A stretch of DNA of 64,000 bases, from contig CAXHJY010000429.1 of the NCBI GenBank assembly GCA_964016885.1, positions 22,650-86,649 of the forward strand, given 5' to 3'. This DNA is from Eledone cirrhosa (taxonomy: Eukaryota). Shown one piece after another: positions 7,120 to 47,139 of the stretch (positions are counted from its first letter, which is position 1; every line of letters starts with the position of its first letter). The notes beneath the pieces were generated by a model that made no database searches, was not told where the DNA came from, and worked only from the letters and a program-made list of their open reading frames with translations. The position numbers and the translations under genes are program-made.

Positions 7120-7183
7120 ATGAGGAGACATGTTGGATTAACTTTATGGCTTGGTGGTGTCTTTCTGCTCTTCTTAAAACCAG
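7120..7183 (+). CDS. Cadherin-related mucin-like receptor, coding exon 1 (signal peptide)
   Basis: MRRHVGLTLWLGGVFLLFLKP; acceptor TTGCAG at 7091-7096 implies an upstream UTR exon; donor GTGACT, phase 1. Confidence 0.75.
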
Positions 7184-8653
7184 GTGACTAACAACTTATA
7201 TAATCCTCTGACTCACAACACCACCATTACAACTCTCCTATTCTCTTCATCACATCCTGATATGAAAGAGATACAAACACCACAACACTTTTTATACTAC
7301 ACAGTACTGTAGAAGACCCACCTCCCCAGAGGGGAAAGGGTGTACTACACAGTACTGCAGAGGGGCACCTCCCCAGGGGCACTGGATGAAGCAAACATCA
7401 TAACTCTCACACCTTAACACTCCACCCTTTACCAGCTAAGTACCCAACCCAAAACCTCTTTTGTGTTGTGTTGGTGACATGACAAAAGTACTCAGCACAT
7501 CCTGAAAAGTGCTGGTGACACTACAAAAAGCACCCACTATTCAATATATTGATTTAAAATGATCAATCAATGCTCTGAAACAATCGTAAAACTATGAAGT
7601 AATTGAGAAGCTATCTCCGACTTTTGTTTTATATTCATTGTTCAATACACATGTACACACACATACACACACACTCACACACATATATATATGCTGTCAG
7701 GACTTTGGAGAAAAACTAGGCATATTTTGTCTATTTTCTCCTTGCATTTATATATATATATATATATATATATATATATATATATGTATATATATATATA
7801 TATAGAGAGAGAGAGAGAGAGAGATAGATAGATAGAGAGTGAGGGAAAGTCTATAACAGAGTATATAATAGCCGAGCTGTCAATCCCAAGGCAGTTGACA
7901 TCAAAAGAAAAACAAAACAAAACAGAAGAGCCATTCATAGATAAAATAGTAAAGGTGTGTATTGAGTGTTACCTTCGGCTTGCACTCTCAGTACTGCCTG
8001 GATTCCTTACAGGGACAACCTCATTGCTTTTGTTTGAGAGCTTTAATAATATCCTAAAATGGCGGCCTTTATTACACCTAGGAGAAAAACTACATAACAC
8101 AGTGGTGGTAGTGGTAGTAGTGGTGGTGGAGGTGGCGGAGGTGGTGGTGGTAGTGGTGGTAGTGGAGGTGGTGGAGGTGGCAGTGGTGGAGGTGGCAGTG
8201 GTGCAGTGGTGGTGGTAGTGGAGGTAGTGGTGGTGGTGTTTCTTGTATTACGCTCCTCAAACCAAAGTACAACAACAACAACAAAGACAACAATATCGAC
8301 AACGACAACAACAACAACCATATATATTTACCTATATAGTGAAAACTATTTATCTGGGTCTCCTAAACCTAATTTGTTTTTTGTTATGAACAAATAACTT
8401 CAGCAGTATACAACAAGAGAAAGACTGAAGGTATATGTATGTTGTTGTTGCTGTGGTTTATTTTTGTTAGTCTGATTAAAACCCGGGTTGGAGTGGGGGG
8501 GGGGGGGGGGCAATCTCAATCTATCATCATCCCATAATACAAGTGCTGCCCTCTGGGCCAATGTATTCTCCATCTTGTCGGCTGCCAGGACCAAGCGATG
8601 GAGGGTAAGTTAGTTGGAGGTAGAGGATTCCCGTTTGGGCATCACAAACAAAA

Positions 8654-8931
8654 ATGAAACTGTGGTCAAGGTCTGCCTTTCATCTGAGGTCAGTGACTGC
8701 CTTTCATCTGTGGTCAAGGCCTGCCTTTCATCTGTGGTCAATGACTGCCTTTCATCTGTGGTCAATGACTGCCTTTCATCTGTGGTCAAGGCCTGCCTTT
8801 CATCTGTGGTTAATGACTGCCTTTCATCTGTGGTCAATGACTGCCTTTCATCTGTGGTCAAGGCCTGCCTTTCATCTGTGGTCAATAACTGCCTTTTATC
8901 TGTGGTCAAGGGCTGCCTTTCATCTGTGGTC
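8654..8931. repeat. 24-bp minisatellite, about 11 copies
   Basis: Unit ACTGCCTTTCATCTGTGGTCAATG; the TTDERQSL ORFs are artefacts of it. Confidence 0.9.
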
Positions 8932-9833
8932 TAGGCCCATCATGCTGTCTATCTTATTTGTGATTTACTCCCATGATACAACTGCCTGTTGTGGGAATAT
9001 CCAGAAATACATCACTGATAGTCTCACATCTTTTATGATAGTAAAGTATGATTTATGGTGAGATTTGGCTCCCATTTCTTACGACCATGTAGAAGCCACT
9101 TCTCTGACTCGTTGTTGTTTAATCCAAACTATGAATGACCAGACCTTTGACCAAAGCCATTTAAGGGATGACCTCCCCATCTTTTATCCAAGAATGGCAT
9201 ATTCTAGACTATATTATAAAAAGTCTTCTTTGAGGAACAAATATTCTTGTATGGTCTAACAACTCATTCCCAGTCTTCTACTGTTGCCTTGCCTAGACAT
9301 CCCCTCCACACACACACCTTTGCAAATTAGGCAGTCAAAAACCTTTCTCCTTCCAACCATCAGAGTCCAGAGTTAGTCTCTCCAACTGTCCCCTAAGAAT
9401 ATCCCAACCTCTTCACTTGTGCCTCCAAATTATGGAGTCACATATTTCTAGGCCTTCCTCTTTTCCTTCTCTCTGTCAGTTTCAGGTCAGTGTTTGCCTT
9501 GTGTTGCAAGATGCAAGCTTTTGGAGGGTGTAACCAACCCATTTCTTTCACTTCTGGGCAATTTCATAATTGTGGACAAGTTGTTAATGACTTGGCTGTC
9601 ACAATTCCTTCTACTGTAGTCATTATCTAATAAGGTAAGGGTAAAGACTCCCTTTGGTCATGGGTGATCATAGGATTTGCATCTAGAAAGTGGAGGGAGG
9701 GGGGTAGCGCCCACTTTGAGAACCTCTGTTCTAACCTCTAAACCCTCCCCCCTCATTATCTAATAATTACATGACTTATTAATGACTGTTAATCACTAAA
9801 TTAATCACTGTATCCATGTCTTTTCTTCTGTAG

Positions 9834-45648: not shown

Positions 45649-45972
45649 TGTATAAATATTTCGTATCTCCAAAGAAATACGGTTTTAGAATCCGTAGCTA
45701 TGCAAACACCGGGGTTCTAACGCCCTCTGGTGATGTCCAGCAGAAGCAAGGGGACAACCGTATATGTATTTCAGGCTTAACTGGCCATCGTCAGGACGCA
45801 AGCGGTGGGAGGGACCGTCCTGACGATGGCCAGTTAAGCCTGAAATGCATAGACGGTTGTCCCCCTTTGCTTCTGCTGGACATCACCAGAGGGCGTTAGC
45901 CCCCCCCCCGGTGTTTGCATAGCTACGGCTTCCTAAAACCGTAGTTCTTTGGAGATACGAAATATTTATACA
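45649..45972. mobile_element. Head-to-head pLTR dimer (about 150-bp arms) in (TA)n/(CA)n
   Basis: TGTATAAATATTTCGTATCTCCAAAG...CTTTGGAGATACGAAATATTTATACA; each arm has a hammerhead core. Confidence 0.85.
45814..45857 (+). ncRNA. Minimal type I hammerhead ribozyme, sense strand
   Basis: ACCGTC-CTGACGA-TGGC/GCCT-GAAA-TGCA-TA^GACGGT; 6-bp stem I, palindromic stem III, U-U at the base of stem II. Confidence 0.78.
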
Positions 45973-46128
45973 CACACACACACATATATATATATATATG
46001 CATAAATAATATATATGTATATATGCATATATATATATATGTATATATGCATATATATGCATATATATATATATCTGTATATATGTAAATATAGCTTATT
46101 TAAAAAAAATATTTCTTCTTTATTCCAG

Positions 46129-47139
46129 GGTACCATTCCAAGTTACATATTTTACACCATCTTGGGATTGTTTATTGCCACTTTACTAATCCTGGTAGCA
46201 GTTCTGGTCATTTTTTTATTGAGACGACCGAAGGAAATTAATGATGAATTGAGAAAGTCAAACTTAGCAAGGGTTTATCCCTCTGTTGGTGCCCCAGAAT
46301 CTGAAAATGTTTCTAAAGAATCTTCCATGTTGAACGGTATTGATAACAACGCGGCGGATTTGACAGACATACTGGAGAGCGGGCAACGACGAAACGACAT
46401 CTATGAATCCATTAACAACTATAATACTTCTCCACCAAATAACAACATCGTTAAAAATCCAGTAAACGTTGGATCTTCGCTTAGCCAGGTGGAACCGTTG
46501 AAAAGTACTTATTCCTCTGTCTCGGAACTTCCCCAACATGAAGGTGATTCACTGAATGAACCTATTCCATATTACGTAACACAGAACGATCTCTCAACAA
46601 TTGGGATCGATGCTAATACTGACGAACATGTACTTCAAGTTGAAGACGATACGGAAGCACAACCTTCTCTAGATGCTGCTCCAGTAACAATGACATTTGG
46701 AGATTTAGCTAAGAAAAGTTGTGTCAGCTTTGCAGATGACACTAACTCGTTAGACGACAACCTTGACAAAACTGATAATAACGATGGCCTTTCATACGTC
46801 GACCATATTAATAATGACAACAATGACGATGATGGCGAGGAGAGTAACAATCCCGATAATTCTAGTGAAAGTGACTCTACAGAGAAAACTCTAGAAAATT
46901 CCAACCAATCAACAAACGATGCTGAAGAAATGACATGGCTTGTTGCGGAGAGTGATGGCGAACAAGAACACCTAGGACAGCAACAAGAACAAGAAGAAGA
47001 AGAAGAAGTACAAGCTCAAATGGAACAGCAACAGCAATTATCATATAGCAATGAAATAGGTTATTCACCACTTGTAGATGATTCACCAACAAGTTCATTA
47101 AGGGATGGAGATATATGTAGGGATAGTATCAGGCTTTAA
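46129..47139 (+). CDS. Terminal exon 17b: second TM helix plus about 305-aa acidic cytoplasmic tail
   Basis: TTCTTCTTTATTCCAG acceptor, phase 0; YIFYTILGLFIATLLILVAVLVIFLL-RRPK; ends DSIRL*. Confidence 0.88.
   Translation, partial: GTIPSYIFYTILGLFIATLLILVAVLVIFLLRRPKEINDELRKSNLARVYPSVGAPESENVSKESSMLNGIDNNAADLTDILESGQRRNDIYESINNYNTSPPNNNIVKNPVNVGSSLSQVEPLKSTYSSVSELPQHEGDSLNEPIPYYVTQNDLSTIGIDANTDEHVLQVEDDTEAQPSLDAAPVTMTFGDLAKKSCVSFADDTNSLDDNLDKTDNNDGLSYVDHINNDNNDDDGEESNNPDNSSESDSTEKTLENSNQSTNDAEEMTWLVAESDGEQEHLGQQQEQEEEEEVQAQMEQQQQLSYSNEIGYSPLVDDSPTSSLRDGDICRDSIRL

Follow-up and report, generated by a model that had tools for sequence, protein, structure and literature searches.

Can a single cadherin ectodomain be joined to either of two complete membrane anchors, each with its own transmembrane helix and cytoplasmic tail? 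The question is raised by a gene of the octopod Eledone cirrhosa that occupies much of a 64-kb stretch of DNA (64,000 nucleotides of contig CAXHJY010000429.1 in assembly GCA_964016885.1, hereafter the window, whose forward-strand coordinates are used throughout). An earlier sequence-only reading had described it as a cadherin-mucin receptor gene with two alternative terminal exons. The window is 33% GC with many microsatellites, in a genome of 3.0 Gb, and the closest proteins are those of Octopus. The locus is a real, conserved two-anchor cadherin gene, and the model that best fits the sequence comparisons, to which we give a probability of roughly 0.7, is that it encodes two single-pass receptors depending on whether a splice donor after position 38494 is used or ignored, i.e. 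by means of a composite terminal exon.

The gene was rebuilt independently using tblastn with the O. vulgaris protein CAI9740380 (P0001) together with splice-site scans. Sixteen exons between 7120 and 35352 amount to 1,467 nucleotides (nt) encoding 489 amino acids, with no stop codons, GT-AG boundaries at every intron, and a phase-0 end. They encode a signal peptide, three extracellular cadherin (EC) repeats and a mucin stalk, which is the chain originally described. Two phase-0 acceptors at 38450 and 46129 follow, ranking 3rd and 4th among the 1,213 AG sites in 35400-63990 when scored with a matrix from the gene's own 13 acceptors. These open reading frames (ORFs) of 1,412 amino acids (ORF A) and 336 amino acids (ORF B; exon B, 46129..47139), and each contains one transmembrane (TM) segment with 4-5 basic residues in the next 15, such that TM-A and TM-B each fit a single type I anchor with a basic stop-transfer. 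The tails that follow, each running to a stop codon, are 1,371 and 305 amino acids long, the latter acidic, in agreement with the approximate lengths first given (about 1370 and 305). Frames with a TM segment plus basic residues are opened by just two of the 340 acceptors scoring more than 4 bits (175 on the + strand and 165 on the - strand), namely 38450 and 46129, and the scan of window acceptors yielded no third TM exon on either strand. As had been noted, no ectodomain-like exon was found between stop A and exon B (42689-46128). ORF A, ORF B and exon 8 (21651..21806) each have one match in the E. cirrhosa genome.

The two tails have no similarity to each other beyond the TM segments, and no Pfam family is matched over cut-off by either; a match of tail B in the ESM Atlas (0.91) is of low recognition and weak. 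The description of tail A as Pro-rich does not hold, since Pro makes up 7.6% of it overall (5.1% in O. bimaculoides) and the Pro block is not conserved. A common origin of TM-A and TM-B by duplication of a TM exon was considered and rejected, the scores not being consistently above those of 43 background TM segments, of which between 1 and 29 scored as high in the 15 comparisons. Tail B has several motifs common to four octopod sequences (PVTMTF, K-x-x-VSF, EEMTW, NEI-x-Y-x-PL and a C-terminal RL), with EEMTW, NEI-x-Y-x-PL and the C-terminal RL present in similar form in Argonauta; the K-x-x-VSF motif resembles a PP1 site of the RVxF type.

Both tails were looked for in other cephalopods, as the sequence-only reading had suggested, and A and B are present in the same order in gene models of O. 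vulgaris (CAI9740380, P0001) and O. bimaculoides (A0A0L8HCL0, P0002). The B frame is identical to these at 121/336 and 116/336 residues respectively; B is also present in P0011, and an Argonauta protein (P0158) has its end motifs by alignment only and fails a search at E 0.001. ORF A matches O. bimaculoides in a single frame at 593 of 1,224 aligned residues (48%), is colinear with it to no more than 5 residues from the stop, and includes ten blocks of at least 20 residues with at least 75% identity, reaching residue 1370. Shuffled versions of ORF A contain on average 82 stops, never fewer than 59 in 1,000 shuffles, and its other two frames have 64 and 130. Given this colinearity and the stops expected by chance, ORF A is very likely coding. 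Its best-conserved part is residues 1-200 (61-66% identity), ahead of the first Met at residue 220, which itself lies after TM-A; ORF A thus needs one or more upstream exons.

The manner in which the two ends are joined turns on a phase-0 donor, TCG|GTAGAT, after 38494, which scores 6.6 bits and is third among the 72 phase-0 GT sites of ORF A, against a leave-one-out range of 2.1-10.1 bits for the donors of the gene itself. An O. bimaculoides RefSeq protein, XP_014773486 (two versions, P0009 and P0156), runs through the ectodomain and mucin stalk to IPSSTTPLGVPAS, the first 13 residues of exon A in that species, and then directly into exon B, whereas in the O. bimaculoides model P0002 this Ser is followed by VVIFF and TM-A. 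The aligned position in the window is a Ser codon followed by GTA GAT, i.e. the donor after 38494, and O. vulgaris has Ser-Val there as well. Because XP_014773486 splices a short exon A to B at the matching position, 38450..38494 is likely an ordinary 45-nt exon 17, contributing 15 amino acids of stalk to both isoforms. Composite terminal exons are marked by a donor inside the exon that one isoform uses and by an intronic poly(A) signal beyond the read-through stop; the donor after 38494 matches the first feature and the AATAAA at 42742 the second. The sequence-only reading had offered this donor as an additional, immunoglobulin M (IgM)-like route; it now provides a better model than the two last exons initially favored, although the central idea of one ectodomain with two TM-plus-tail ends was likely right.

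We therefore describe the proposed switch as follows, each step being conditional. If the donor at 38494 is used, exon 17 would be joined to exon B at 46129 to give a protein computed at 840 amino acids, with TM-B and the 305-residue acidic tail; this junction is annotated in O. bimaculoides and predicted by alignment in E. cirrhosa. If it is ignored, translation would proceed through the read-through extension (38495..42688) encoding TM-A, its stop-transfer and the 1,371-residue tail, with the RNA cleaved past the AATAAA at 42742 and a product of 1,901 amino acids. We infer that RNA for this A form is made and polyadenylated with the ectodomain included, and that use of the donor is regulated. 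The donor would then compete with an intronic poly(A) site much as in IgM, except that the product of reading through, instead of being secreted, would gain a second anchor with a very long tail. Both forms would display the same adhesive, glycosylated ectodomain and engage different cytoplasmic partners.

The poly(A) signals taken alone are weak evidence. That each end has its own AATAAA is correct insofar as both are present: the one at 42742..42747 is 54 nt past stop A with a T/GT-rich tract downstream and a chance probability of about 0.07 at the window density, and the first one after stop B (47392..47397) is 253 nt past the stop, has no GT-rich tract and, with a chance probability of about 0.27, is no better than chance; another lies at 47870. 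Near the exon B acceptor there is a foldback element (45689-45960), about 170 nt 5' of it, with inner arms (45750-45798 and 45816-45864) that are 96% complementary. No inverted repeats linking the donor region to exon B are seen in the 25 longest of 357 in 38300-46200, these being AT runs and one foldback element.

Several observations weigh against the composite-exon model. Identity falls to 22-36% in the middle of tail A, and tail A was found in only two of the 159 proteins compared, both of them models in which A and B are fused and two TM segments are present. A RefSeq isoform with tail A did not turn up in word and 50%-cluster searches, one of which recovered a single B-containing record (P0001) of the four in the length range, missing P0002, P0009 and P0156; the search of 50% cluster representatives, with 247 matches of which the best 150 were listed, yielded XP_014773486. 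Protein database searches found no full-length record of the ectodomain plus A. Support for all of the junctions and 3' ends in E. cirrhosa comes from sequence only, and the splice matrices were trained on the gene's own sites, only 13-14 in number (13 for the acceptor matrix). RefSeq models lean on RNA-seq, and that RNA backs the XP_014773486 junction is an assumption from how such models are made.

The fused models raise the alternative that exon A is a large internal exon spliced on to B, which would produce a protein with two TM segments, a long cytoplasmic loop and an extracellular tail B. Both models that contain A have this form, P0001 running from A residues 1-680 into B and P0002 joining almost the whole of A to B, and there is a phase-0 GT donor of 4.9 bits at 42658. 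However, the two models exit A at different places, and the P0002 exit corresponds in the window to AAA|GCCAGC, which at -6.7 bits is not a usable donor. The basic residues after TM-B and the conserved Tyr and VSF motifs make tail B look cytoplasmic, and since P0002 begins with unrelated sequence and P0001 is without an EC exon and mucin exons, both are probably unsupported predictions. We consider a two-TM product unlikely.

The scheme initially favored, in which two separate last exons are chosen from exon 16 (35352 to 38450, or 35352 to 46129 giving 825 amino acids), is attractive in that the acceptors, both phase 0, are strong, and joining exon 16 directly to B leaves the frame open. Nonetheless, the sole B-type model with an intact stalk, XP_014773486 in its two versions, includes the short exon 17, and a direct junction of exon 16 to B is in no protein model found. 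As the principal route this is improbable, although the 45-nt stalk exon could be skipped as a minor form.

Equally improbable is that ORF A has a promoter of its own within the cadherin gene and belongs to a separate, nested transcript, encoding a membrane-anchored protein without the cadherin ectodomain. The unrelatedness of the two tails would be explained, as would the failure to find a full-length record of the ectodomain with A, but there is no Met before TM-A, ORF A has its acceptor and first 45 nt in common with the cadherin B isoform, and no other candidate first exon was identified in scans that were not designed for non-coding ones. The last alternative, that ORF A is simply an intron of the B transcript that is open by chance or decaying and not expressed as protein, would account for the lack of a transcript-derived record with tail A among those found but is very improbable for some 1,400 stop-free codons, against the 82 stops expected, that are open and colinear at 48% identity in O. 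bimaculoides.

The composite-exon model has partial precedents. Composite terminal exons are common, with IgM (IGHM) the classic example, and the intronic form is usually a secreted one that stops just short of the TM segment (PMC5928244). The likeness is that when a donor goes unrecognized the exon extends as far as a poly(A) site within the intron, an outcome that competes with splicing to a TM exon downstream, and the difference is that the read-through in the octopod gene encodes its own TM segment and a conserved tail of 1,371 amino acids. The alpha and delta isoforms of nectin-2 have one ectodomain and differ in TM and cytoplasmic region (PMC8779676), and alternative last exons of LAMP2A/B/C change the TM and cytoplasmic region, with tails of about 12 amino acids (PMC10549195). 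In these, as proposed here, one ectodomain has both the TM and cytoplasmic regions exchanged, with the B form of the octopod gene annotated in O. bimaculoides and the A form suggested by conservation; unlike the octopod protein they are not cadherins, and the octopod tails are 305 and 1,371 amino acids with the switch likely a composite exon. Among cadherins, the swapped exon of arthropod N-cadherin (ME-18a/b) holds part of the TM segment with one cytoplasmic domain drawn (PMC2655722), and PCDH15 CD1-3 swaps tail ends and keeps one TM segment and a common juxtamembrane region (PMC6092121). Both thus vary the TM region or tail by splicing, but neither swaps both, unlike the proposed octopod switch. 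In the literature searched, mostly outside subscription papers, there was no cadherin in which TM segment and tail are both exchanged, and no mention of six identifiers for this gene.

The ectodomain belongs to the cadherin superfamily, with DxNExPP, LDYE and xDDxGP Ca-binding linker motifs in the window protein and PF00028 over cut-off in the orthologues P0001, P0008 and P0156; linker motifs and length give three EC repeats. All exons are on the + strand. The ATG and signal peptide are in coding exon 1 (7120..7183), which matches the P0001 N-terminus. EC1 begins in exon 2 (9834..9896, with Cys27) and continues in exon 3 (10389..10522; tblastn with P0001, E 1e-6) and exon 4 (14223..14261, with Cys98), and exon 5 (15490..15579) includes the EC1-EC2 linker and the DxNExPP motif. 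EC2 is in exon 6 (16734..16838) and exon 7 (18156..18278, with the LDYE motif and a PF00028 match of E 5e-4 that is under the curated cut-off), exon 8 encodes the EC2-EC3 linker, and exons 9 (22629..22710), 10 (22896..23008) and 11 (23353..23418) complete EC3. The mucin stalk is encoded by exons 12 (24379..24465) to 16 (35287..35352) and has 144 amino acids, 56% of them Ser, Thr or Pro; the O. bimaculoides stalk has 192 (61%). Exons 13 (30269..30361), 14 (32203..32295) and 15 (33693..33785) are 93-nt repeat copies, the second exactly the same as the first and the third 1 nt different, and their flanks are duplicated too. Every stalk exon is phase 0, so skipping could change the length of the stalk. 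The repeats in the O. bimaculoides stalk are different ones, in a record numbered as isoform X5/X6.

The sequence-only reading likened this organization to CDHR5, which has four EC repeats, a domain resembling mucin, a TM segment and a tail, with a C5-C73 disulfide formed by a Cys pair at the EC1 tip (PMC8691648). The arrangement of EC repeats, mucin before the TM segment, and tail is indeed similar, as is an EC1 Cys pair at precursor positions 27 and 98 (29 and 101 in three Octopus records), a candidate for the EC1-tip disulfide of CDHR5 and PCDH15 (Cr-3). Identity as CDHR5 is rejected, there being three EC repeats rather than four, and the sequence leans toward the N-terminal repeats of PCDH15/Cad99C, which the repeats resemble in the ESM Atlas. 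Among the 60 of 163 PDB matches listed, PCDH15 EC1-3 chains are present, with PCDH15 second behind the multi-repeat CELSR1, and CDHR5 is absent. Assignment to PCDH15/Cad99C does not follow either, as these have 11 EC repeats and a membrane-adjacent domain (PMC6092121) versus three EC repeats and a mucin stalk here, the N-terminal repeats alone being alike. A tree of 14 invertebrate rows, with no vertebrate rows, places the window protein inside an unstarred group of seven mollusc rows and does not separate orthologue from paralogue, so orthology rests on the tails.

Two O. vulgaris proteins, CAI9740387 and CAI9740388 (P0157 and P0017), 7-8 accession numbers from P0001 and on a contig equal in length to that of P0001, represent a three-repeat paralogue that lacks mucin and has one TM segment followed by either of two short tails. 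A relative in Argonauta is likewise without mucin, and these mucin-free relatives suggest that the CDHR5-like layout is likely convergent. A search of the E. cirrhosa genome with P0017 was insensitive, missing the window's own exons. Ectodomain identity between O. bimaculoides and O. vulgaris/sinensis is 57-65%, compared with 81% between the P0001 and P0002 tails (records P0008, P0012, P0156, P0001 and P0002). From these values evolution seems to be quicker in the adhesive part than in tail A, or else the records are tandem paralogues.

Other features of the locus include an acceptor-like TTGCAG 24 nt upstream of the ATG (within 7080-7119), such that a non-coding first exon may precede it. Intron 7 contains, on the - strand, a long interspersed nuclear element (LINE)-type element (18637-21468) with endonuclease, reverse transcriptase and a PHD-like finger, broken by one stop. 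A 170-residue open frame at 35970-36482 (- strand) has a DD motif and, in our reading, the look of a retroelement fragment, with no Pfam match. A 6.1-kb AT microsatellite array (49006-55147) lies 3' of the gene.

Each of the ingredients is known; what appears to be undescribed is their combination, which includes a conserved coding read-through of 4.2 kb. At slightly better than even odds, we favor the fuller proposal that this is an octopod cadherin with an IgM-style switch between donor and poly(A) site that exchanges the whole anchor and signalling tail, the read-through being a selected 4.2-kb coding region for a lineage-specific cytoplasmic scaffold of 1,371 amino acids that annotation has missed or mis-joined, and its use being regulated by cell type so that one fast-evolving adhesive ectodomain is rewired to two cytoskeletal or signalling programmes. 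A microvillar or sensory-epithelium role is a guess from the resemblance to PCDH15, Cad99C and CDHR5. The locus also points to a blind spot in annotation: two public models merge the anchors in a single protein with two TM segments, and among the RefSeq records found there is only the B form. If the proposal is true, intronic polyadenylation, which usually truncates a receptor before its TM segment, would here more than double the protein and supply it with a second anchor.

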